Shown: positions 19,352 through 64,000 of the stretch, piece after piece
Position numbering within the stretch: the stretch's first letter is position 1
How the letters are laid out: every line of letters begins with the position of its first letter
Origin: Candidatus Omnitrophota bacterium
GTDB taxonomy: Bacteria > Omnitrophota > Gorgyraeia > Duberdicusellales > 4484-171
DNA: 64,000 bases
Direction of reading: 5' to 3'
NCBI GenBank assembly: GCA_037146775.1
Contig: JBAWWL010000002.1
Span: 198,554-262,553 of the forward strand
The notes under the pieces: generated by a model
Told to the model about the DNA's origin: nothing
Databases searched by the model: none
The model's input: the letters and a program-made list of their open reading frames with translations, nothing else
Program-made: the position numbers and the translations under genes

Positions 19352-19474
19352 GGGTAGTTAAAGGGGTCAGACCCATAATTAAAGGGGTCAGATCTTCAGA
19401 TGTCAGATAAATTGCGGAAGGTAGTTAAAGTAATTAAAGGGGTCAGACCTTCAGATGTCAGATAAATTGCGGAA
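19352..19474 (+). repeat. Tandem (~57-bp unit x2, first copy shortened) REP-like element containing the 30-nt core AAAGGGGTCAGACCTTCAGATGTCAGATAAATTG
   Basis: Core copies at 19358-19374 (partial), 19381-19417 (one mismatch) and 19436-19472. The same core recurs at 24280-24313 (+) and 29981-30008 (-). It contains the small palindrome GGTCaGACC. Confidence 0.6.
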
Positions 19475-22904: not shown

Positions 22905-24309
22905 ATGGCAAGAATATTATTGATTTCAGTATATGATATTAATGCAGAGGGGTTGAGAAGCCTATCTGCTCTGTTGAAGAGTAAAGGACATCAACCGTAT
23001 ATCGTATTCCTTAAGCGATACGGAAAAAGCGGCTCTTTTGTCTTTAATTGGCGAGGTCAAGCCTGAGCTTATCGGTATTTCAGTAACAACGCCGTTAAGA
23101 AAAAAGGCAGTCGAAATATCGCTATTGATAAAGAACATATATGCTATACCGATTGTTTGGGGAGGTCCAGATCCAACTATAAGCGCACAAGATTGCTTAG
23201 CGTATTGTGACTTCGTATGTGTCGGTGAGGGAGAAAAAACTATTATTGATATTGCTTCGGCGCTTGATGTAAAGGATGACATCAAGAAAGTGAATAATAT
23301 CGCGTATATGGCAGCTGATAGATGTGTTCGAAATCCTCTGAATCCTTTGGTAATCGATTTAGATAGTCTTCCTTTTAAAGATATAGATAAGGATAATAAG
23401 TTTTTGATAGAAGATAATATGTTGATAAGAAATTTCCATGAAGTAAGCAACACATTAAATTATAAATATCATCTGATAGGTGCGCGAGGGTGCCCCTATG
23501 GCTGTTCGTATTGTTGCGAAGATTTCTATAAAAAATTGTACGATAAACAAGTTTTTTTAAGAAGAAGGTCTGTTTCTCACATAATACAAGAATTAGAAGA
23601 AGCAAAGATAATACGCTACAAATTTGTTCAATTTGAAGATGAAGTTTTTTCTTATGACTATGATTGGTTATTGGAATTTAAAGATAGGTATAAAAGCGAG
23701 ATTAACCTTCCATTCACATGTTATATTTATCCAAATAAAAATATCGAAAGGCAATTGAAAATTTTGAAAGAAACAGGTCTCACTCGCACATGCTTGGCAT
23801 TGCAATCAGGTAGTGGTAGGATAAACAAACAAATATTTAATAGAGTTTTCGATAGAGAACTTTTTATAAAAACAGCTAGGTTGCTGAAATCAATGGATAT
23901 AGAGTATTACGTTGATGTTATAACGTTTAATCCTTTCGAGACAGAGGAAGACCTGCGGTTAACCTTGGACGTTCTCAATGAACTGCCGAGGCCATTCTGG
24001 TTGTGTATTAACAAGCTATATGTTCTCAAAGGTACAAAAATATATACTTTGCTTAAAGATTATAAAAAAACAATAAAGAGTGCGATTCCGGAAAGACTTT
24101 TTACCTACTACAGCCTTCTATTTTGGCGGACAACAGAGTATCATAAAAACCTGGTCAAGTTTATATATGCGATAAGAATATTTAAGTATTTTCCAGCTTT
24201 GTTTAATTATACATCAAAAATATATTCCTGTATTCGTAATCCCAGAGATATTCCTAAAAGAATAAAACGAAAGTTCATCAAAGGGGTCAGACCTTCAGAT
24301 GTCAGATAA
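22905..24309 (+). pseudogene. B12-binding radical SAM enzyme interrupted by a +1 frameshift in a T-run (~23036-23039), with its C-terminus replaced by a REP-like repeat
   Basis: The ATG at 22905 encodes MARILLISVYDINAEGLRSLSALLKSKGHQPYIVFL..., a typical B12-binding-domain start, and stops at 23055. Frame +1 from TTG 23038 continues with ..KPELIGISVTT.. and the radical SAM CPYGCSYC motif. The last 9 codons (KGVRPSDVR*) are encoded by the 30-nt repeat at 24280-24309. Confidence 0.5.
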
Positions 24310-24313
24310 ATTG
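24280..24313 (+). repeat. REP-like 30-nt element copy (AAAGGGGTCAGACCTTCAGATGTCAGATAAATTG) immediately upstream of the transposase gene
   Basis: Exact match to the core at 19436-19472. Lies 32 bp upstream of the transposase (RAYT-like) start. Confidence 0.6.
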
Positions 24314-24344
24314 ACAAAGCATTAACAAATGTTATCATACGTTC

Positions 24345-40575: not shown

Positions 40576-40685
40576 TATATAGTCGTGAGTATTGAGTACT
40601 GAGTATATAGTGGGGGAAGGACGTATATAGTATAGAGTACATAGTATATCGTAAACAAACTGGGCGGAGGGTAACGGGGAACTCG

Positions 40686-40764
40686 GTGGACGGTTGCGGT
40701 TACTCGCCTCGATTTGCTCGGCGAAGCGGGCGAAGCTCGTCTCGGTTACGTCTAACGGTAACGT
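40686..40764 (+). repeat. GC-rich ~80-bp element, left copy of an inverted pair bracketing 40.7-45.6 kb
   Basis: ACGGTTGCGGTTACTCGCCTCGATTTGCTCGGCGAAGCGGGCGAAGCTCGTCTCGGTTACGTCTAACGGTAACG is ~90% identical to the reverse complement of 45532-45615. Confidence 0.55.
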
Positions 40765-41065
40765 TTTATAATAAACTCTAAACCAAAATATTTCAAACTC
40801 AAAACACTATTGTTTAGGATTTTGAATTTATGATTTTGGATTTGTTTAGGATTTAGTCCTTCGACTTCGCTCAGGACTAATGGCGAGCACAGTCGAACCA
40901 TTAGAGTTTTCCACCTCCATAATGCACTTATTATGGTGGATCCGCCTAAGTTTTAACGGTGGCGGAAGTGTTTAGGGTTTATTTACCACAACCTCACGAC
41001 TACATACTCTATACTACATACGACATATTATCTCCCTACTGCAATGCTTGACAAGATAATCTGTT

Positions 41066-42060: not shown

Positions 42061-42290
42061 TCTTTAATTTTTCTCCCCTTACTATGTACGACATACTCTG
42101 TACTACATACTTTTTTATGTTTAATTTTTCTCCCTCCCATTATCTTTTCCCCGGTTTCAATTTTTAATATTTAATTTTTCTTTTACTCTATACTCATTAC
42201 TCAATGCTCACGACTACATACTATGTACTACATACTCCATGCTACCCATTATTGCCTAATAACCTACCAACATAATAACCTATCAACCAT
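42061..42290 (+). repeat. G-depleted degenerate short-repeat array (TACTACATAC / CCTA(A/C)CAACAT units)
   Basis: ctatgtacgacatactctgtactacatac...cacgactacatactatgtactacatactccatgctacccattattgcctaataacctaccaacataataacctatcaacc. Related arrays occur at 40981-41015, 45340-45480, 45621-45700 and 51170-51250, and on the opposite strand at 34681-34760 and 40561-40655. Confidence 0.5.
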
Positions 42291-42308
42291 TCCAGCTTTC
42301 ATGTTCTC

Positions 42309-42585: not shown

Positions 42586-45177
<2,592 letters not shown>

Positions 45178-45531
45178 AAGAGTGCTTAATATAATAACTA
45201 AAATGGAGTATGCTCCATTATGGTAATACTAATATGGAGGGTGTTTTTACGGGCACTGTGGTCCGGGAAAATAATTTAAGTAGAGGATAGCTGTCCCAAC
45301 CTTTTCTGCATATCAATTCGCTAATCCTTTAACCCTTCCTGTCCTTATATATCCATTTTTAATATTTGATATTTAATATTTAATTTTTCTCCCCCCTTCT
45401 TGCCTAATAACCTATCAACATACCAACCTATCAACCTATATCCTTTTCCCCCCCCTGCTATGTACTACATACGCCATACTACATACGATCTTTCTTTATG
45501 TTTCGCACACGTCATCCGTTATGATGTATGA

Positions 45532-45615
45532 GCCGTTGCCGCTAAACGTAACCGATACGAGCTTCGCCTGCTTCGCCGAGGGAATCGAGGCGAGTAACCG
45601 TAACCGTTCGCCAAG
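45532..45615 (-). repeat. GC-rich ~80-bp element, right (inverted) copy
   Basis: Its reverse complement GCTTGGCGAACGGTTACGGTTACTCGCCTCGATTCCCTCGGCGAAGCAGGCGAAGCTCGTATCGGTTACGTTTAGCGGCAACGG matches 40686-40764. Confidence 0.55.
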
Positions 45616-45919
45616 CTTGCCTACTATGTAATCTATACTCCGTACTACCCATTATTGCCTACTAACCTATCAACATACTCACCTATTAACCATTATAGTT
45701 AATTCATAAAAAAACTATTGACATCTTTTTATATAATGTTAAATTAAAGTAACGGTTTTTTTTAATGAGGCAGCAACTTTTCAAGCCTATAGGCAAAGAA
45801 AAATTGCTTAGCCGAATTAATCCGACGAGGCTGCTAAAATTATGGTAGAGGATTTTAGCGTATGTAAGTCCGAGTCGGGATATGTACAGAAATTATATTA
45901 AGGATAAAAAAGGAGGGGT

Positions 45920-53615: not shown

Positions 53616-53987
53616 ATGGAAATGACAAAAGGTATAGTTGGAGATAATAAATTTGACCTTGAAGGTAGAACGTTGATTTTTGCTAAAAATTGCATTGATT
53701 TGTGTAAAATGTTGATGTGCGACACTATAAACAGGGAATTAATAAGCCAGCTTGTAAGGGCTTCTGGCTCAGTAGGTGCAAACTATCGAGAAGCGAACGA
53801 AGCTCTAACAAAAAAAGATTTTTTCCACCGCATTGGAATATGCAGAAAAGAGGCTAAGGAAAGCAAATACTGGTTAGAATTATTGTCACATACTAATCCA
53901 AAGCTTTCTAATAAAATTGAGGTATTAGCTGACGAAGCATTGCAATTAGCGCGTATTTTCTCAGCTATAGTAAAAAAACGCGTCTAG
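53616..53987 (+). CDS. Four-helix-bundle protein (PF05635/TIGR02436 family: 23S rRNA IVS protein / DGR Avd-like)
   Basis: QLVRASGSVGANYREA..KKDF...CRKEAKESKYWLELL matches the family consensus. It is paralogous to 55638-56003 and 57310-57711. Confidence 0.65.
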   Translation: MEMTKGIVGDNKFDLEGRTLIFAKNCIDLCKMLMCDTINRELISQLVRASGSVGANYREANEALTKKDFFHRIGICRKEAKESKYWLELLSHTNPKLSNKIEVLADEALQLARIFSAIVKKRV

Positions 53988-55519: not shown

Positions 55520-55602
55520 CTATTTACCCATATAAACCCTGTCTTATTTCCGACGTGGATTGTATTGACGCATTGTGATATGTTATGATATAATTAAAAC
55601 TT

Positions 55603-55616
55603 AAAAGTAAAAAGTC
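55603..55616 (+). repeat. Left arm of a 14-bp inverted repeat bracketing 4HB gene 2 (partner at ~56022-56036), with further TTTTAACTTTT / TTTACCTTTTTCGTTTTAAC tandem copies downstream to 56180
   Basis: TTAAAAGTAAAAAG upstream. CTTTTTACTTTTAA downstream. Confidence 0.45.
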
Positions 55617-55637
55617 AAAACTAAAAATATAAGTTAA

Positions 55638-56003
55638 ATGGAGAATAAAGTTTACGATTTAAAGAAACGTACGTATGTGTTTGCTTTAGATGTTATTAGG
55701 TTTCTTGAAAGTTTACCAAAGGATTATATTTCTATTGTTATCGGGAAACAGTTGTTACGCTCAGCAACTTCTGTGGGAGCGAATGTGGTCGAGGCGCAGG
55801 CTTCTAGCTCCAAGAAGGATTTTATAAATTTCTATAATTATTCATTAAAATCCGCAAACGAAACAATATTCTGGCTAAGTTTACTTAAGGATGCAAATAG
55901 AGATCCTAATCAGAAAATACCTCTTCTTCTAAGCGAAACACAGCAGCTCTCAAAAATTCTTGCTGCAAGCATTCTGACAATGAAAGGAAAGAGAAAGCCT
56001 TGA
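55638..56003 (+). CDS. Four-helix-bundle protein (PF05635 family), paralogue 2
   Basis: QLLRSATSVGANVVEAQ..SKKDF..NETIFWLSLL. Confidence 0.65.
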   Translation: MENKVYDLKKRTYVFALDVIRFLESLPKDYISIVIGKQLLRSATSVGANVVEAQASSSKKDFINFYNYSLKSANETIFWLSLLKDANRDPNQKIPLLLSETQQLSKILAASILTMKGKRKP

Positions 56004-56182
56004 ATTTAAATTTTCGCTCTAACTTTTTACTTTTAACTTATTTTATTCAGTGGATTACTTTTTCGCGTTTTGATTTTTAACTTTTACCTTTATTTCGTTT
56101 TACCTTTTTCGTTTTAACTTTTAACGTTTCTGTTCAAAGTATTCACTTTTACCTTTTTCGTTTTAACTTTTAACTTAATAAT

Positions 56183-56419
56183 ATGACCGTCAACGATAAT
56201 GAAATCTACACCTTAGAAGAAGCTCAGTCTATATTAAAGATCAGTCGCTCCACCCTATTGCGTCTTATCAAGAAAGGTCTAATTAAAACCGCAAAAGTCG
56301 GCCGTCAATATCGAATCTGGGGTAATGAAATTCTGCACATCATGTCCCCATCTTTAGAAGGCAAAGTCCGTAAAGAGTATAGGAAAAGTAGGGAATGGTT
56401 GTATAAAGGCATAAGTTGA
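56183..56419 (+). CDS. Excisionase-family / MerR-like helix-turn-helix DNA-binding protein
   Basis: YTLEEAQSILKISRSTLLRLIKKGLIKTAKVGRQYRI matches the excisionase-family DNA-binding domain pattern. Confidence 0.5.
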   Translation: MTVNDNEIYTLEEAQSILKISRSTLLRLIKKGLIKTAKVGRQYRIWGNEILHIMSPSLEGKVRKEYRKSREWLYKGIS

Positions 56420-56452: not shown

Positions 56453-57286
56453 TTGGACAACACTTCGCAAAAAACTATTGTTATCGAAGCAGGCCGGACG
56501 AGGGGATTATATTGGAGAGATCTTTGGCATTATCGTGCATTATTTTATTTCTTATCTTGGCGGGACATTCTTGTCAGGTATAAACAAACAGTTATTGGTA
56601 TTGCTTGGAGCGTTATCAGGCCATTGCTTACCATGGTTGTCTTCACTTTTGTATTCAGCAAATTAGCGAAATTTCCTTCTGAAGGCGTTCCATATCCTAT
56701 CCTGGTCTTTACCGCTATGCTTCCTTGGCAATTTTTTGCGAATGCTCTTAGCGAAAGCAGTAATTCCCTTATTACTAACGCTAATATGCTTACCAAAGTT
56801 TATTTTCCGCGGCTCATCGTTCCCGTAAGCACCATTATCGTTTGTCTAGTTGATTTTATTATATCATTGTTACTTCTTGTTGTGCTTATGGTGATATATA
56901 AGTTTACCCCTTCTTTAAATATTTTAATACTGCCACTATTTCTTCTTCTGTTGCTGATTTTTTCTCTTGGTCTAGGTCTTTATATATCAGCATTAAATGT
57001 AAAGTATAGAGATTTCCGTTACGTCGTTCCTTTTATCGTCCAGTTCGGACTTTATATTTCACCCGTTGGTTTTAGCTCAAGCGTTGTTCCTGATAAGTGG
57101 AAATTATTTTATTATTTGAATCCAATGGTAGGAATAATTGATAGTTTCAGATGGGCAATCCTTGGAGAGAGTGTTCATATCTATTGGCCGGGATTTATCC
57201 TTTCTATTATCTTATCTGTAGTTATTTTCATTTTTGGTTTACTGTATTTTCGTAAAACCGAACGCACGTTTGCTGATATTATATAA
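56453..57286 (+). CDS. ABC-2 type polysaccharide export permease (Wzm/KpsM-like)
   Basis: GLYWRDLWHYRALFYFLSWRDILVRYKQTVIGIAWSVIRPLL and six TM helices. Confidence 0.7.
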   Translation: MDNTSQKTIVIEAGRTRGLYWRDLWHYRALFYFLSWRDILVRYKQTVIGIAWSVIRPLLTMVVFTFVFSKLAKFPSEGVPYPILVFTAMLPWQFFANALSESSNSLITNANMLTKVYFPRLIVPVSTIIVCLVDFIISLLLLVVLMVIYKFTPSLNILILPLFLLLLLIFSLGLGLYISALNVKYRDFRYVVPFIVQFGLYISPVGFSSSVVPDKWKLFYYLNPMVGIIDSFRWAILGESVHIYWPGFILSIILSVVIFIFGLLYFRKTERTFADII

Positions 57287-57300
57287 TGAATTCTTTGTTA

Positions 57301-57326
57301 TAGTTACCAATGTCCAATGAGCTAAT
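57301..57326 (+). repeat. Left arm of a ~25-bp inverted repeat bracketing 4HB gene 3 (partner at ~57757-57781)
   Basis: CAATGTCCAATGAGCTAATGACGAAT versus the reverse complement of downstream ATTCGTCATTCGGATTTGGACATTG, which is CAATGTCCAAATCCGAATGACGAAT. Confidence 0.55.
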
Positions 57327-57711
57327 GACGAATAAAATATCAATGATTCAAGCCAACAATAGTAAATACGATTTACGTGAGCGAACAGCAAAGTTTGGCG
57401 AAAATGTCATTAATTTTGCTAAAAGAATTCCAGAGTCTACTATAAACCGGCCCTTGATAAGTCAGTTAGTAAGAGCGGCTACAAGCGTGGGCGCAAATTA
57501 CTGCGAAGCAGATGATGCTACCACTAAGAAGGATTTCCTATACAGAATTGCTGTGTGCAGAAAGGAGTCTAAAGAGTCCAAGCATTGGTTGCGGATGGTA
57601 ACGATGGCTATTCCGGCGTTGAAGGATGAAGCGAATTTGTTATCTAATGAAGCGCAGGAATTGAATCTTATTTTTTCTGCGATTATCAATAAAGGAAAAG
57701 CTAAATCTTGA
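57310..57711 (+). CDS. Four-helix-bundle protein (PF05635 family), paralogue 3
   Basis: QLVRAATSVGANYCEA..KKDF..CRKESKESKHWLRMV. Confidence 0.65.
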   Translation: MSNELMTNKISMIQANNSKYDLRERTAKFGENVINFAKRIPESTINRPLISQLVRAATSVGANYCEADDATTKKDFLYRIAVCRKESKESKHWLRMVTMAIPALKDEANLLSNEAQELNLIFSAIINKGKAKS

Positions 57712-57810: not shown

Positions 57811-59070
57811 ATGAGTACGGTCATCAAAGTCGAAAATCTAGGCAAAAGATACGTTATAAGTCACCAAGAGCAACAGCGCTATCGGACTCTTCGTGATGTT
57901 GTTACTAATAAGTTTAAATCATTCGGCAAGAAGACGGCTTCGACCAAAGAGGAAATATGGGCGCTCAAAAATGTTTCGTTTGAAGTAAAGCAAGGAGAAA
58001 GAGTTGGCATTATCGGAAGGAACGGCGCGGGTAAATCCACTCTGTTAAAGCTATTAAGCAGAATAACCGAACCAACGAAAGGTAAGATTGGGCTGTGCGG
58101 CCGTGTGGGGAGCCTTCTTGAGGTTGGCACCGGTTTTCATCCTGAGTTGACCGGGAGGGAGAATATATATCTTAATGGCGCCATCCTAGGTATGTCAAAA
58201 TCGGACATACGCAAGAAATTTGATGATATTGTTGCTTTCGCGGAAATTGATAAATTTCTTGATACGCCAGTTAAGCGGTATTCGTCAGGAATGTATGTCC
58301 GGCTTGCCTTTGCCGTTGCTGCCCACTTGGAACCAGAGATTCTTTTGGTGGATGAAGTTCTTGCCGTTGGTGACGTCTCATTCCAGAAGAAATGTTTAGG
58401 AAAAATGGAGGATGTGTCTCAAGAGGGCCGGACCCTCCTATTTGTAAGCCACGATCTGGTGGCGGTCAGAAAACTTTGTAAAAGAACTATCCTTTTATGT
58501 GATGGAAAAATAGAGAAAGATGGTTTTACCGACAGCGCTATTGATGCATATTTGAATTATTCCAGGAACGCGACAGAAGGATTGTATTGCTGGAATGAGC
58601 CTGCGGGTCGTCAGAAAGTTTGGCCTGTGCAATTAGAGATATTAGATGAATCGATGAATCGAATATCCAATATTCCTTTCGATAGTGCTGTAACCATAGC
58701 GCTAAGAATTAAAGTGTATGAAGCGTTTAGCTTCCAGGTGAGCCTTCGCATCACTAACAATCTTGCGATTCCCATCTTTTCTACTGAGCCAAGTCAAGAG
58801 CTTATGTTTTATAATCGCGGTTATTATAATTTCTCTCTTAAGTTGCCGTTCGCTTTATTGTCGCCAGGTTATTATCGTGTTGCGTTGGGTATCCATGATC
58901 CAGGAACAGAGGTATTTTTTTTCGAAGAGCAGATATTGTCGTGGCAAGTAATCGAGACGGGTACAAATATGGCAAAATACAAGAAATATCATGAAACAGG
59001 AGTAATTATTGTTGATATTCCCTGGGAAATAATTTATAACAAACAGGATGGCAAAATTGAACCGTGTTAA
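57811..59070 (+). CDS. Polysaccharide ABC exporter ATP-binding protein (Wzt-like) with a C-terminal glycan-binding domain, copy 1
   Basis: Walker A GRNGAGKST, signature YSSGMYVRLAFA, Walker B LLVDEVLAVGD, plus a ~200-aa beta-rich C-terminal extension (Wzt_C-like). Confidence 0.8.
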   Translation: MSTVIKVENLGKRYVISHQEQQRYRTLRDVVTNKFKSFGKKTASTKEEIWALKNVSFEVKQGERVGIIGRNGAGKSTLLKLLSRITEPTKGKIGLCGRVGSLLEVGTGFHPELTGRENIYLNGAILGMSKSDIRKKFDDIVAFAEIDKFLDTPVKRYSSGMYVRLAFAVAAHLEPEILLVDEVLAVGDVSFQKKCLGKMEDVSQEGRTLLFVSHDLVAVRKLCKRTILLCDGKIEKDGFTDSAIDAYLNYSRNATEGLYCWNEPAGRQKVWPVQLEILDESMNRISNIPFDSAVTIALRIKVYEAFSFQVSLRITNNLAIPIFSTEPSQELMFYNRGYYNFSLKLPFALLSPGYYRVALGIHDPGTEVFFFEEQILSWQVIETGTNMAKYKKYHETGVIIVDIPWEIIYNKQDGKIEPC

Positions 59071-59145
59071 GTATATCTGCATTCCTCTGTGTTCCAATGT
59101 ATCTGTGTTTAATAAATCTGCGCCAATCTGTGTTTTAAAAAAGGT

Positions 59146-60390
59146 ATGTCAGTAGTCATCAAAGTCGAAAATCTAGGCAAAAGATACGTTATAAGTCACC
59201 AAGAGCAACAGCGCTATCGGACTCTTCGTGATGTTGTTACTAATAAGTTTAAATCATTCGGCAAGAAGACGGCTTCGACCAAAGAGGAAATATGGGCGCT
59301 CAAAAATGTTTCGTTTGAAGTAAAGCAAGGAGAAAGAGTTGGCATTATCGGAAGGAACGGCGCGGGTAAATCCACTCTGTTAAAGCTATTAAGCAGAATA
59401 ACCGAACCAACGAAAGGTAAGATTGGGCTGTGCGGCCGTGTGGGGAGCCTTCTTGAGGTTGGCACCGGTTTTCATCCTGAGTTGACCGGGAGGGAGAATA
59501 TATATCTTAATGGCGCCATCCTAGGTATGTCAAAATCGGACATACGCAAGAAATTTGATGATATTGTTGCTTTCGCGGAAATTGATAAATTTCTTGATAC
59601 GCCAGTTAAGCGGTATTCGTCAGGAATGTATGTCCGGCTTGCCTTTGCCGTTGCTGCCCACTTGGAACCAGAGATTCTTTTGGTGGATGAAGTTCTTGCC
59701 GTTGGTGACGTCTCATTCCAGAAGAAATGTTTAGGAAAAATGGAGGATGTGGCGAGGCAGGGAATGACCGTTATTTTCGTAAGCCATAATATGGGAGCAA
59801 TTGAGAATTTATGCCAACGTACTATATTGATTGACGCCGGAGCGGTGAAAAGGGACGATGATACATCGACAACGATTGCGTTATATTTAGAAAATATTTC
59901 TACGAATATTTCAACTGTGTCGCTGTTGGAGCGTAAAGATCGCTCAGGATCAGGAATCGTTAAATTCTCTGATTTTCGAATAGAAGATTTGCTGGGTAAT
60001 TCGTTGAATGTTGTTCATAGTGGGCAAGATATTGTCTTTATTTTTGATTTTGCCTCGACAAATTCCGCAAACTCGCTTAACGTAGATGTCGGTTTTGGTG
60101 TTTTTTCTCCCATGGGTCAACTTCTTTTTGTTCTTTATAGTAGCTATACTGGAGAAGAATTTAAAGAGCTTGCCATACAAGGGAGTTTTTGTTGCAGAGT
60201 TAATAAATTACCATTGATACCTGGACGGTATAGAGTAGGGGCACGAATTGTGGTGGGGCAGGATGAGTCTGATTGGCCGGCCGACGGTATCGGTTATTTC
60301 GATGTTGAGGCTGGTGATTTTTACGGTACAGGGAGTATGGGGTTTGGCCAGTGTCCGATATTAGTTGACGGTTCGTGGTTTTTGAAATAA
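59146..60390 (+). CDS. Wzt-like ABC ATP-binding protein, copy 2 (5' 610 bp identical to copy 1, different C-terminal domain)
   Basis: Nucleotides 59152-59762 are identical to 57817-58427. Divergence begins after ...KKCLGKMEDV. Distinct C-terminal beta-rich domain. Confidence 0.8.
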   Translation: MSVVIKVENLGKRYVISHQEQQRYRTLRDVVTNKFKSFGKKTASTKEEIWALKNVSFEVKQGERVGIIGRNGAGKSTLLKLLSRITEPTKGKIGLCGRVGSLLEVGTGFHPELTGRENIYLNGAILGMSKSDIRKKFDDIVAFAEIDKFLDTPVKRYSSGMYVRLAFAVAAHLEPEILLVDEVLAVGDVSFQKKCLGKMEDVARQGMTVIFVSHNMGAIENLCQRTILIDAGAVKRDDDTSTTIALYLENISTNISTVSLLERKDRSGSGIVKFSDFRIEDLLGNSLNVVHSGQDIVFIFDFASTNSANSLNVDVGFGVFSPMGQLLFVLYSSYTGEEFKELAIQGSFCCRVNKLPLIPGRYRVGARIVVGQDESDWPADGIGYFDVEAGDFYGTGSMGFGQCPILVDGSWFLK

Positions 60391-61079
60391 ACACAAATTG
60401 TGTTATGGTAATACTTGGTGTTTTAAGGAAAAAAATTACAAAGATATGGCGCAATATTTTAAAGCATATCCCGTTTACCACTTTGAATAGTTTTGGCAAA
60501 GCTTATTCGAAGATAAGCCCTATTAAGGGATTTCTTACTCCAGGGCAGGAAGAATGGATGTTTACAGTAGCGAAGAGACTTCCTCCATCAGCGAATATTT
60601 TAGAAATTGGTTGTTATCTTGGTCGGTCGACCGCGAGTTTTGCTTCAGGATGTGTTGGTACCAATAAGCGGGTTTATTCTATTGATATTTTTGGCGGTTT
60701 GTATCAGGATGTGATTAATGACTCTGACCTTAGGGAGGCATTTGGTTCTGATTTCTTTGAGAAATGGCGGCGCAACATGAAAGATGCGGGGGTCGCGGAT
60801 TACGTCTTACCCTTAAAGGGGGATTCAAAGAATATTGCACAGATTTGGCGTGCGCCAATACATCTTTTATTTATTGATGGCTCTCATGTTTACGACGATA
60901 TCATCGCTGATTTTAATAATTTTTTTACGTATGTCGTATCGGGTGGTATCGTCGCTTTCCATGACGTGCTTCCAGCGTGGTCAGGTGTGTATAAGGTGTG
61001 GCATGATGTTGCGAAATATCAATTGGTACGAATAGGCAATTGTGATTCGATTTGTTATGGTAGTAAACCGAGCGAATAA
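60375..61079 (+). CDS. Class I SAM-dependent methyltransferase (CmcI/TylF-like, Methyltransf_24-type)
   Basis: LEIGCYLGRSTASFASG (motif I) and the FIDGSHVYDDIIADF pattern. The start may be ATG 60405 rather than 60375. Confidence 0.55.
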   Translation: MVFEINTNCVMVILGVLRKKITKIWRNILKHIPFTTLNSFGKAYSKISPIKGFLTPGQEEWMFTVAKRLPPSANILEIGCYLGRSTASFASGCVGTNKRVYSIDIFGGLYQDVINDSDLREAFGSDFFEKWRRNMKDAGVADYVLPLKGDSKNIAQIWRAPIHLLFIDGSHVYDDIIADFNNFFTYVVSGGIVAFHDVLPAWSGVYKVWHDVAKYQLVRIGNCDSICYGSKPSE

Positions 61080-61085
61080 ATACTG

Positions 61086-61964
61086 ATGAGAAAGCGAATA
61101 GCTGCTATTTTTAGACAGGCGATGGGTGTGGCGAAGATGAAGCTATTTGTGATTGGAATTTACCTTAAAAGATTATTCAGGCGGCATGCGATTGTTGTTG
61201 AGGATGTTTATGACATTAAATTTATATATTATCCATGGGAAAAGAGGTCCTTACGCACGTTGCTTCGTAAGGAGTATTACAGGGAAGAATTTCAGGCATT
61301 GGAGAAGTTGATTCGTCCTAAAGACACAGTGTTCGATGTTGGTGCTAATGTTGGAATATTCAGTGTTTTCTTAAGTCGTTTAGCGATGGAGGGCGGGAAG
61401 GTTTTTGCTTTTGAACCTGTCCCTGAGACGTATTGGCGGTTACGTGAGAATCTTGCGCTTAACCGGTGTTTAAATGTACTGTCTATCCAGATGGCAGTTT
61501 CTGACAGAGAGGGTGTGGTGGCGATGAACATATTCCCTAAAGAATATTCAGATTGGAATACGATGGGTAAGCCTGTTATGTCCAGTCCAGAAGGCGACAT
61601 CGTTCCCTGTGAATCTACCGCCGTTACTGCTGTTACGCTAGATGATTTCTGTAAGAAAGAAAATATTGATCATATAGATTTTCTTAAGGTTGACGTAGAA
61701 GGTTTTGAAAAAAATGTATTTCTTGGCGCGCGGCAGCTTTTAAGAGAAAAGCGCATCGGTTATATTTGTTTTGAGATATCAGAAGAGCCACTTAAGGGTG
61801 CCGGCATTGCCGCCCGCGATGTGTTTGCTCTTCTTGAGAGTTATGAGTATCTTGTTTATAAATTTGATCATGCACACGATGTCTTTCAAGGGCCTATCCA
61901 TAGTTCCAGTGAGTATTATGCGAATTATTTCGCTTCATGGAAAAATTTGAATGAGGTAAGGTAA
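61086..61964 (+). CDS. FkbM-family methyltransferase
   Basis: VFDVGANVGIFSVFLS...GKVFAFEPVPETY and FLKVDVEGFE are typical of Methyltransf_21 (FkbM). Confidence 0.65.
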   Translation: MRKRIAAIFRQAMGVAKMKLFVIGIYLKRLFRRHAIVVEDVYDIKFIYYPWEKRSLRTLLRKEYYREEFQALEKLIRPKDTVFDVGANVGIFSVFLSRLAMEGGKVFAFEPVPETYWRLRENLALNRCLNVLSIQMAVSDREGVVAMNIFPKEYSDWNTMGKPVMSSPEGDIVPCESTAVTAVTLDDFCKKENIDHIDFLKVDVEGFEKNVFLGARQLLREKRIGYICFEISEEPLKGAGIAARDVFALLESYEYLVYKFDHAHDVFQGPIHSSSEYYANYFASWKNLNEVR

Positions 61965-61973
61965 CCATTTAAC

Positions 61974-64000
61974 ATGCGATTAATGTTAATATACCATCAC
62001 GGAGCGTTAAAAAGTTCGATGTTTCTTTATGACGCATTGGCAAATATTGCTGGCATTGAACTGTTTGTTGTCGTTCCAGAAAAAATAAAAGTAGATACAG
62101 TTTACGAGGCAACCGAATGGCTAACTCCAGCCCATGTGCGCAGTCATCAAAGATATGAGTTAATTTCCGTTCCATTAAAAGACCCGGCTCGGTATAATTT
62201 GGGCTTTGATAATAAAAAGATGTGGCTGGCAATTCGAGCCAAAAAGCCAGATATCATACATGTATTGGATGAACCATATTCACAATTTCTCTTTGAGACA
62301 ATTTTTCTTAAGCTGACCGCTTGTTTTCGTTCGCGGGTCATTTTTTATGGATATGACAATCTTCCCTTGCAGATTGCTGGCTTGAGATCTTCGTTACGAT
62401 GGAGATTCGTGCGTTCTCAGCTCGCTGGAGGTGTCGTTGCTAACAAAGAGGCTTTAGAGAATATTAGAAAGGAAGGATTTTCCAAGGATAAACCTCTTGA
62501 GCGCATTTTTTGGGGTGTGCCTACAGAACTATTTAAACCAATGGACAAGGAGGTATTACGCAAAGAACTATCTCTTAATCATGAATTTATAATAGGTTAT
62601 ATCGGCAGGCTCTTGTCGGAAAAGGGGATTTCAGTTTTACTGGAAGCGATGAGGCAATTGTCGCACGGTATGGTTTGTTTGATTATTGGTAATGGTGTGA
62701 TGAAGAGTGAACTTAAAGAGCGGGCTAAAGAACCTATCTTGCAGGGAAGAGTTTTAATATGTGACGCTATGGAACCGGAACGATTAGTGAAATATTTGAA
62801 TTGTATGGATGTGTTGGTTTTACCATCACTTACTACATCACAATGGAAGGAGCAATATGGGCGCGTAATTAGTGAGGCGATGGCTTGCGGTATTCCGGTG
62901 GTAGGCTCTGACTCGGGGGCTATCCCTGAAGTTATCGGTAATTGCGGTTTTGTTACTCGGGAAAACGACGCGGTAGCCTTAGCGGCCGCGATTCTAAAAA
63001 TTATTGAGGATCATGATTTACGTAAGCTGTTTATCAAGAAATCACTGGTACGTGTCGAGACGGAATTATCAACTCAAGTCATGAGCAATAAGTTTAACAT
63101 TTTTTATCAGAGTATTTTAAGGCAGCCACTATTTCGATTACACAGTATAATTTATCCGTTTCGCATTATAAAATATATCATACGTTATGTTTATCGAATT
63201 ACAGTCAACTATAGCAGGTATTTTGTGATTATGCCGATTAGGAGGTTTATCGAACGAAAATATTTCCGCGCTATCAAACGTAGCTATCGTGAGCAATGTT
63301 GGTGTGGCGGCGATATTATTCCGTTTGTATACCATGGTAGTTATAGTGTGTGTAAGATTTGTGGAACATATGTAAATCAGCACCCACCGATGCTGCACGA
63401 ATTAAAAAAGCTTTATACTTTCGATTTGTATTGGCACACAAAGCAAAGATTTAAAGGCCATCCTACAATAGAGAAACGTACCAAGTATGACCGTGTTGAC
63501 GGACGGTTGGAATATTGGTTAAATTTAATCGCACGATATGTGCCACTGGGATGTAACGTGATTGAAGTTGGGTGTGCACATGGTGCTTTGTTGGTAGAAT
63601 TAAATAAGCTGGGCTACAGATGTATTGGGATTGAACCTGATGAATGTACTGTTCAGTGGGTTAGAAAGAATACAGGATTAGATATCCGAGGGGGATTTTT
63701 CCCCCATGTCGATCTACCGCCATGCGATTTGTTTCTTGCTTTCGATGTTCTTGAACACGCTCCTGAGCCTGAAATCTTTATGCGGGGCGTCGCGCGTTTA
63801 TTAAGACCAGGTGGAACAGCTATTATCCAGGCCCCGACTGACAGAAGCGATTCCAGGCCTCCTTTTGGACGTTGTTTTAGGGATACCTTCGATGATACAG
63901 AGCACTTGTTTATTTATACCGACCAGGCAATGAAGGAGTTAGCAAAGAGATCAGGATTGTATGTTGTGAGCTTAACTGAACGATTATCGGTGCATCAAGA
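61974..64000 (+). CDS. GT4-family (GT-B) glycosyltransferase fused to a Cys4 zinc-ribbon and a C-terminal class I SAM methyltransferase; 3' end beyond window (absent from the ORF track because there is no stop)
   Basis: Manual translation from ATG 61974 is open to the window end. EAMACGIPVVGSDSGAIPEVIG (Glycos_transf_1), CWCGG...CKICG, then VIEVGCAHGALLVELNKLGYRCIGIEPDE (motif I) and FDVLEHAPEPE..LLRPGGTAII. Confidence 0.6.
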   Translation, partial: MRLMLIYHHGALKSSMFLYDALANIAGIELFVVVPEKIKVDTVYEATEWLTPAHVRSHQRYELISVPLKDPARYNLGFDNKKMWLAIRAKKPDIIHVLDEPYSQFLFETIFLKLTACFRSRVIFYGYDNLPLQIAGLRSSLRWRFVRSQLAGGVVANKEALENIRKEGFSKDKPLERIFWGVPTELFKPMDKEVLRKELSLNHEFIIGYIGRLLSEKGISVLLEAMRQLSHGMVCLIIGNGVMKSELKERAKEPILQGRVLICDAMEPERLVKYLNCMDVLVLPSLTTSQWKEQYGRVISEAMACGIPVVGSDSGAIPEVIGNCGFVTRENDAVALAAAILKIIEDHDLRKLFIKKSLVRVETELSTQVMSNKFNIFYQSILRQPLFRLHSIIYPFRIIKYIIRYVYRITVNYSRYFVIMPIRRFIERKYFRAIKRSYREQCWCGGDIIPFVYHGSYSVCKICGTYVNQHPPMLHELKKLYTFDLYWHTKQRFKGHPTIEKRTKYDRVDGRLEYWLNLIARYVPLGCNVIEVGCAHGALLVELNKLGYRCIGIEPDECTVQWVRKNTGLDIRGGFFPHVDLPPCDLFLAFDVLEHAPEPEIFMRGVARLLRPGGTAIIQAPTDRSDSRPPFGRCFRDTFDDTEHLFIYTDQAMKELAKRSGLYVVSLTERLSVHQ

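Follow-up and report, generated by a model that had tools for sequence, protein, structure and literature searches.

Two tandem Wzt proteins with a perfectly shared ATPase head and different C-terminal domains behind a single Wzm in an Omnitrophota genome

We analysed a 64,000-nucleotide stretch of contig JBAWWL010000002.1 (the window, below) from a Candidatus Omnitrophota bacterium, in which two wzt genes, here called wztA and wztB, lie in tandem downstream of a single wzm. Wzm is the permease, and Wzt the ATPase with a C-terminal carbohydrate-binding domain (CBD), of an ATP-binding cassette (ABC) exporter. The two genes share a head that is identical at every nucleotide; the identity breaks off inside the nucleotide-binding domain (NBD), and each protein then continues into a CBD of its own type. 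The interpretation that we favour, with moderate confidence, is that one Wzm channel is served by two cap-reading Wzt subunits, and that gene conversion has recently made the heads of these two old paralogues alike. A preliminary description of this DNA had already recognised two wzt paralogues in tandem that have a common NBD sequence, differ in their recognition domains and lie next to methyltransferase genes; that outline stands, with one wzm alongside.

Exact-run computation and alignment show that the heads form a direct repeat of 597 nucleotides (57820–58416 and 59155–59751) with 100% identity and an offset of 1335. The repeat covers codons 4–202 in both wztA (419 residues) and wztB (414 residues), no insertion or deletion separates the copies, and both junctions fall at equivalent codons and in frame. 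A match of this length cannot be due to chance, and no other long repeat was found within the 64-kb window. Ahead of the tract codons 2–3 differ, reading AGT ACG (Ser-Thr) in wztA and TCA GTA (Ser-Val) in wztB; behind it ungapped nucleotide identity is 53% in each of three successive 30-nucleotide windows, and the NBD remainders of WztA and WztB are 42% identical in amino acid sequence over 52 residues. The preliminary description had placed the repeat at 57817–58427 and 59152–59762 (611 nucleotides). That it is a perfect direct repeat is borne out, and its limits need to be drawn in: the 5' limit lay 3 nucleotides too far out, where the copies read ACG and GTA, and the 3' limit 11 nucleotides too far out, where they read TCTCAAGAGGG and GCGAGGCAGGG, although the motif quoted for the end of the identity, ...GGAAAAATGGAGGATGTG, was correct. 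The differing codons are 2–3 rather than 3–4, and the share of each gene outside the identity is 52% rather than 60%. A GC-rich hairpin (GAGGG-CCGGA-CCCTC, 58423–58437 in wztA) starts 7 nucleotides past the 3' end of the tract; it came from a terminator scan that overall matched shuffled levels and may be a coincidence.

Both proteins are full Wzt subunits consisting of an ABC NBD, a linker and a CBD of the Wzt_C fold. The two open reading frames (ORFs) are full length and intact, lie in tandem on the plus strand and are annotated at NCBI as the consecutive proteins MEI8349014.1 and MEI8349015.1. Each scores as an ABC NBD (PF00005, 2.9e-23 for WztA and 2.6e-23 for WztB), a wzm is encoded alongside, and the ATPase motifs are complete, with GRNGAGKST, YSSGM, ILLVDE, AVGD and VSH(D/N) read in both translations. 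At its C-terminus WztB matches Wzt_C (PF14524) with 42.4 bits, over the cut-off of 30.4. For WztA the assignment comes from alignment and structure: its phmmer alignment to Aquifex aeolicus Wzt (7K2T/8DKU) spans NBD and CBD, to residue 363, and a profile built from 71 WztA homologues aligns to the same protein up to profile position 395; WztB likewise matches 7K2T/8DKU over NBD and CBD. AlphaFold2 models of WztA and WztB (predicted local distance difference test, pLDDT, 85.5 and 83.8) have all-beta C-terminal domains, with block-mean pLDDT of ~86–96 across most of each CBD, a beta-sandwich. The top PDB matches of both models in Foldseek are full-length A. aeolicus Wzt chains (E 1e-35 to 1e-37); for WztA, 389–407 columns were aligned to 8DL0/7K2T at E~1e-36 to 1e-37. 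Pairwise comparison of the two C-terminal domains detected no similarity beyond the first 52 variable residues. The earlier term "unrelated" therefore fits them in pairwise sequence only, as they are divergent members of a common fold and family. Nor are the two proteins identical throughout the NBD, as had been stated: over its last ~45 residues, which go with the CBD, identity is no more than 42%.

Where the identity ends is informative with respect to the architecture of the ATPase. The shared head holds Walker A (residues 69–77), the signature motif YSSGM (157–161), Walker B (177–182) and the D-loop (185–188), and a helix at 189–204 lies inside it except for its last two residues. WztA numbering equals the 8DKU chain index plus 14 in the phmmer alignment; native A. 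aeolicus numbering we take to be one further (offset 15), going by the catalytic glutamate, E167. At offset 15 the predicted helices 189–204, 216–222 and 240–253/257 coincide with helices of the A. aeolicus protein. In cryo-EM structures of that protein the NBD faces the CBD dimer with three helices, the "elongated helix" (174–189), the "H-loop helix" (201–207) and the "hinge helix" (226–240), and the hinge helix helps to form the pocket, its Tyr233 contacting the O antigen (PMC9445017). The models place the break inside the ATPase, with a predicted variable module that consists of the CBD, the H-loop and two of the three CBD-facing helices. The shared block would comprise the region that binds ATP and, judging from how ABC proteins are generally built, probably also the one that docks on Wzm.

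A similar partition is evident across the Wzt family. Two protein searches supplied 238 full-length homologues (118 per binding-domain type, type A being that of WztA and type B that of WztB), in which the positions of our residues 203–248 were taken as the NBD tail. CBD identity goes together with that of the NBD tail (Spearman 0.53; partial 0.52 given the head) and not with that of the head (Spearman 0.12, partial -0.02). Of the heads, 36% have a protein of the other CBD type as nearest neighbour, as against 4% of the NBD tails and 0% of the CBDs. There are 324 pairs with head cores at least 95% identical and CBDs less than 50% identical; the change-points of these mosaics map to our residues 214–229, and that of WztA/WztB to residue 202. 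Protein-guided look-ups also yielded two independent, cyanobacterial pairs of this kind at the nucleotide level. Locus L164 (A-type) and locus L165 (B-type) are 93.3% identical over 674–675 nucleotides from 1 nucleotide before the ATG, and L166 and L167, whose CBD types also differ, are 91.8% identical over 691 nucleotides from 5 nucleotides before the ATG; in both pairs the flanks are unalignable upstream as well as downstream. Heads across lineages are 74–77% identical in nucleotide sequence, compared with 92–93% within these two pairs. The protein clusters of L164 and of L165 each contain Dolichospermum members. When the first 163 loci were compared with one another by megablast, duplicate contigs alone came back and no head-only mosaics. 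The four loci come from freshwater and other metagenome contigs, and several of their wzt genes have no adjoining wzm.

In these comparisons heads follow lineage and tails follow type, the pattern characteristic of exchange or concerted evolution confined to the head, and the Omnitrophota pair, at 100%, is the extreme case of this family-wide decoupling of head and tail. A more general proposal can be put forward only tentatively, as we give it distinctly less than an even chance. Wzt may be built of two separately evolving units, a core that fits Wzm and binds ATP and a plug-in reader comprising the H-loop region, the hinge helix and the CBD, with the seam just before or after the H-loop, and repeated gene conversion may match cores to the shared Wzm in genomes with several readers; the Omnitrophota locus, with its one channel and two readers, would then illustrate this in nature more cleanly than any other. 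Dimers of WztA with WztB are a further possibility.

Several features of the locus favour gene conversion, which had been raised earlier for the perfect identity and is its best explanation, given the diverged tails, the independent start of copy 2 and the in-frame junctions. Two old, diverged wzt paralogues would already have been adjacent when, recently, a homology-guided conversion replaced codons 4–202 of one gene by those of its neighbour. The 100% tract abuts a 3' flank of 53% nucleotide and 42% amino acid identity, and at its 5' flank codons 2–3 differ yet encode a Wzt-type N-terminus in each gene. Copy 2 begins ATG TCA GTA (Met-Ser-Val), a family-typical start in which the Ser codon differs from the AGT of copy 1 at all three bases; since it has this wzt-like start of its own and an upstream spacer unrelated to the DNA upstream of wztA, copy 2 is best regarded as an independent, older gene. 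Junctions at the same codons, in frame and without indels, fit a homology-guided exchange. The tails are old by their 42% amino acid identity in the NBD, and neither has the look of a recent import, since GC content and GC content at third codon positions (GC3) of the head and of both tails fall within the spread shown by the genes of the window. Simple duplication followed by divergence was excluded, the tails differing far too much for a head that has not a single substitution.

The main evolutionary rival is a whole-gene duplication after which one tail, perhaps together with the downstream genes, was swapped for foreign DNA by a crossover near codon 202. Such a course has precedent in the Pseudomonas syringae TET operon, where wzt and the downstream terminator and glycosyltransferase genes are swapped between strains (PMC7820976), and it would sit well with the frequency of head/tail mosaics in the Wzt family and with the tendency of each CBD type to travel with its own downstream enzymes. 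A duplicate should, however, keep the first codons and the upstream DNA of its parent, and here the codons are AGT ACG in one gene and TCA GTA in the other and the spacer is unrelated; neither tail stands out in GC or GC3. We consider this history unlikely, it being less consistent with the independent start region than gene conversion between old paralogues.

Some observations weigh against the interpretation that we favour, in its historical or its functional part. Heads that probably agreed at only ~75% of their nucleotides are expected to undergo conversion rarely, and the 5' end of the tract almost coincides with the point where coding homology begins, a coincidence that conversion alone does not call for. 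The closest database proteins are ~83% identical over a partial head, 79–80% over the whole head and 63–65% over the full protein, too distant to point to the donor copy or to bring out an incongruence of head and tail for this organism itself. (The head is 75% identical to A-type and 72% to B-type relatives, a comparison confounded by hit selection.) The Wzt_C score of WztA, 22 bits, is under the 30.4 cut-off. The rest of the 327,864-bp contig, or of the genome, could hold a second wzm, and the genes next to A-type CBD relatives are varied (sulfotransferase, hexapeptide acyltransferase, methyltransferases and a glycosyltransferase of family 4, GT4). Finally, the arrangement is known from one contig of one metagenome-assembled genome (MAG), and each protein forms a singleton cluster.

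This last point bears on whether the tandem layout or the perfect identity was made by the metagenome assembler or polisher, either by stitching together the wzt alleles of two strains or by homogenising similar copies during polishing. Apart from the MAG origin of the contig and the singleton status of both proteins in a 15-billion-protein collection, an exact 28-mer from the end of the repeat had no match in JGI metagenomes, and tandem wzt genes with identical heads occurred in none of 162 comparable loci. A Wzt homologue (P0240) on another public contig, a 79,308-bp ENA metagenome contig, moreover has a perfect internal duplication that resembles an assembly loop. The junctions argue otherwise. 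There are four distinct ones, as the repeat is entered behind two different wzt-like starts and left in two different directions, and the assembled order is the sole linear path that uses all four; in particular, the junction of tail A, the 75-nucleotide spacer, ATGTCAGTA and the head needs a molecule with a second wzt start after tail A. Strain alleles would reconverge downstream instead of re-entering the head, and polishing, which may erase a few single-nucleotide polymorphisms, cannot make 100% identity abut 53%. The GC3 of all parts fits the contig, and a dual-Wzt architecture is independently present in another genome (L047, below). An artefact is thus improbable; the assembly collapse suggested earlier fails for the tandem layout, given the different 5' junctions and the unique junction of tail A, spacer and start, and could hide a few polymorphisms at most. 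In the P0240 protein itself, ~100 residues of the ATPase head are tandemly doubled (ETFWALKDV...FAELE twice), which may be real or an assembly loop.

If the two genes are what they appear to be, the shared head would bind ATP and dock on Wzm, so that either Wzt could power the same channel, and the variable module would bring the CBD together with the NBD helices that hold it, by analogy with A. aeolicus WzmWzt. Each Wzt would recruit a polymer with a different cap at its non-reducing end, and export of two differently capped glycans, as proposed in the preliminary description, is plausible on this analogy. Three methyltransferase domains encoded directly downstream of wztB are, from sequence alone, candidate capping enzymes; they correspond to the three methyltransferase genes counted earlier, one of the domains being part of a fusion with a GT4 glycosyltransferase. 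The type B cap would most likely be methyl, supplied by the downstream FkbM methyltransferase, because genes for B-type CBDs adjoin FkbM in other loci too: a relative with this CBD is directly followed by an FkbM methyltransferase gene in the P0123 contigs, L021, L049, L165, L167 and L168, and tblastn with the FkbM protein of the window matched 5 of 8 B-type loci and 13 of 72 others (Fisher p=0.012).

That both subunits would use the same permease is suggested by the gene content of the window, in which tblastn with the Wzm protein found no second wzm. Among 57 genome loci, wzm lies within 1.5 kb upstream of wzt in 47, and no wzm is present within ~10 kb of wzt in 5, which makes it plausible that dispersed Wzt paralogues share one permease more generally. 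The same 5 loci can be read the other way, as they imply that a Wzt need not be encoded next to its Wzm. The genes could be real and yet form no device of dual specificity, one of them being redundant, decaying or serving another permease and the identical head being accidental; the score of the A-type CBD under the Pfam threshold points in the same direction. We rate this as quite improbable. Both ORFs are full length with intact ATPase motifs, both CBDs are modelled as beta-sandwiches with the high confidence given above, and an unselected direct repeat of 597 nucleotides should, we reason, readily lose the wztA tail.

Such a loss follows from the geometry of the repeat. Recombination between the two copies would remove the wztA tail, the spacer and one head, a one-way loss, or else a route to amplification; what remains after the deletion would be one gene, the same as wztB apart from residue 3, and a 1335-bp circle, and direct repeats of 597 nucleotides would make the wztA tail prone to RecA-type deletion. 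The recombination-driven switch of specificity envisaged earlier is not supported as a reversible device. Pfam scans of the ORFs of at least 60 residues between 53.6 and 64 kb found no recombinase, the sole DNA-binding candidate being an HTH_17 protein, and with repeats in direct orientation a reversible or programmed switch (an invertible segment or a switch of the shufflon type) was rejected. A diversity-generating retroelement, considered because neighbouring 23S_rRNA_IVP genes belong to an Avd-like family, was likewise rejected, as the copies are identical rather than adenine-mutated and the scanned ORFs include no reverse transcriptase.

Table 1. Coordinates of the wzm–wzt region and the genes that follow it (positions in the window).
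Feature	Position	Strand	Basis and remarks
wzm, single ABC-2 type permease	56453–57286	+	Pfam ABC2_membrane (PF01061) 5.5e-23
Small four-helix-bundle gene, 23S_rRNA_IVP family	57310–57711	+	PF05635 4.9e-12; between wzm and wztA
wztA, ATPase + divergent Wzt_C-fold CBD, 419 aa	57811–59070	+	ABC_tran 2.9e-23; structure matches
Repeat copy 1, shared head	57820–58416	+	Codons 4–202 of wztA; exact-run computation, alignment, translation
wztA variable module, predicted: H-loop (His214), H-loop helix, hinge helix, linker, CBD type A	58417–59070	+	Sequence, model
Spacer, 75 nt, between wztA and wztB	59071–59145	+	Unrelated to DNA upstream of wztA
wztB, ATPase + canonical Wzt_C CBD, 414 aa	59146–60390	+	ABC_tran 2.6e-23; Wzt_C 9.1e-11
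Repeat copy 2, shared head	59155–59751	+	Codons 4–202 of wztB; exact-run computation
wztB variable module, predicted: H-loop, H-loop helix, hinge helix, linker, CBD type B	59752–60390	+	Sequence, model
Methyltransf_24 methyltransferase, candidate capping/modifying enzyme	60375–61079	+	Pfam 4.4e-21; overlaps wztB stop
FkbM-type methyltransferase (Methyltransf_21), candidate maker of type B cap	61086–61964	+	Pfam 4.4e-25
GT4 + Methyltransf_23 fusion, runs past window end	61974–64000	+	Glycos_transf_1 3.2e-32; Methyltransf_23 1.9e-18

The genes around the pair are listed in Table 1; farther upstream lie Wza-, Wzc-, Wzy_C/TPR- and WbaP-like genes. The IVP-family gene between wzm and wztA is context and no part of the transporter, and tblastn with its protein had no match among 80 related genome loci. 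It is one of three IVP-family paralogues (the others at 53616–53987 and 55638–56003) that are 36–51% mutually identical and scattered among the polysaccharide genes. An AT-rich region at 55598–56188 contains a 40-nucleotide imperfect inverted repeat (75% complementary) around the second of these, followed by a ~6-copy array of a TTTTCGTTTTAACTTTTAAC-like motif directly upstream of the HTH_17 gene (excisionase-type DNA-binding, 78 residues, 56183–56419). A promoter and terminator scan that included the spacer between wztA and wztB gave no signal above shuffled controls, and operon structure is not inferred from it. At a greater distance, an 89-nucleotide inverted repeat (40682–40770 and 45527–45615, 84% complementary) brackets a P-type cation ATPase gene (42586–45177), as does a family of 73-nucleotide direct repeats (42219–42291, 45367–45439 and 45622–45694), which suggests a small mobile or repeated intergenic element. 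A 44-nucleotide repeat (TAATTAAAGGGGTCAGA(T/C)CTTCAGATGTCAGATAAATTGCGGAA) is intergenic and occurs in tandem at 19376–19419 and 19431–19474 and again 4.8 kb off at 24275–24318.

How the pair relates to known systems can be judged from several comparisons. According to work on Escherichia coli O8/O9a and Klebsiella O12, which reportedly used alleles of different strains and engineered chimeras, it is the C-terminal domain of Wzt that selects the capped glycan for export. The E. coli O8/O9a Wzt is likewise an ATPase fused to a C-terminal cap-reading CBD (Cuthbertson, Powers & Whitfield 2005; Cuthbertson et al. 2007; Mann et al. 2019), and the title of the 2005 paper, as it appears in the reference list of PMC9445017, has the C-terminal domain setting O8/O9a specificity; the CBD is essential and dimeric and can act in trans (PMC9445017). 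The O8 and O9a proteins are alleles of different serotypes, one per genome, whereas here both genes stand in tandem behind one wzm, their heads are identical in nucleotide sequence, and the natural swap point falls inside the ATPase before the H-loop and not at the linker between NBD and CBD. A. aeolicus WzmWzt (7K2T, 8DKU, 8DL0) is the best match in sequence and fold to both of our proteins, with ~32–34% identity overall and 42–44% over the NBD. It has a single Wzt for one cap type, a methyl cap, and a CBD dimer that docks on the H-loop, hinge and elongated helices (PMC9445017). In the "TET" operon of P. syringae common polysaccharide antigen (CPA), the variable unit starts at wzt and includes a terminating methyltransferase and a glycosyltransferase, wzm and the upstream genes are conserved, and recombination or horizontal transfer was inferred; this is replacement between strains with one wzt per strain, and no internal breakpoint or tandem copies are described (PMC7820976).

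A parallel in architecture is locus L047 in a Pyrinomonadaceae MAG (DASTQB010000375.1, 9661–13867), where, independently, a single permease goes with two cap readers. It encodes one wzm and two CBD-bearing wzt genes with unrelated C-terminal domains, in the order wzt-wzm-wzt with a methyltransferase gene directly downstream, and contains only one wzm within ~10 kb; unlike the Omnitrophota pair, its heads are 68% identical in amino acid and 77% in nucleotide sequence and so show no recent homogenisation. As to mechanism, tufA and tufB of Salmonella are duplicated genes that undergo concerted evolution by gene conversion. Tandem lpl paralogue units of Staphylococcus aureus are presented in the same terms (PMC2568036). 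In such cases there is likewise an identical tract between paralogues with diverged borders, and the evolving unit extends, as here, from the 3' part of one gene across the spacer into the 5' part of its neighbour. The tract in wztA and wztB differs in that it covers one functional half of the protein, the other half keeping a different specificity. No account of tandem Wzt paralogues that share a head turned up in our literature searches. The name "wzt2" occurs in Burkholderia and Vibrio genome papers, and Massilia violaceinigra has been reported with two wzt genes, only one of them with a verified domain.

The components of the locus are ordinary members of the Wzm/Wzt-CBD systems. What is new, as far as our searches show, is the tandem pair behind one wzm, with a nucleotide-perfect head and a seam inside the ATPase, and the family-wide decoupling of the head from the NBD tail and CBD. 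The practical weight of the locus is limited, as the organism is uncultivated and the layout comes from one assembly; it represents a pair of natural chimeras within a single genome. If our interpretation is correct, one Wzm channel could be shared by alternative cap readers, and the natural unit of exchange would be the CBD together with the H-loop region and the hinge helix rather than the CBD alone, so that export specificity could be engineered at a rationally chosen seam when glycoconjugates are produced. The interpretation would further offer a concrete hypothesis for the uniformity of Wzt heads across paralogues.

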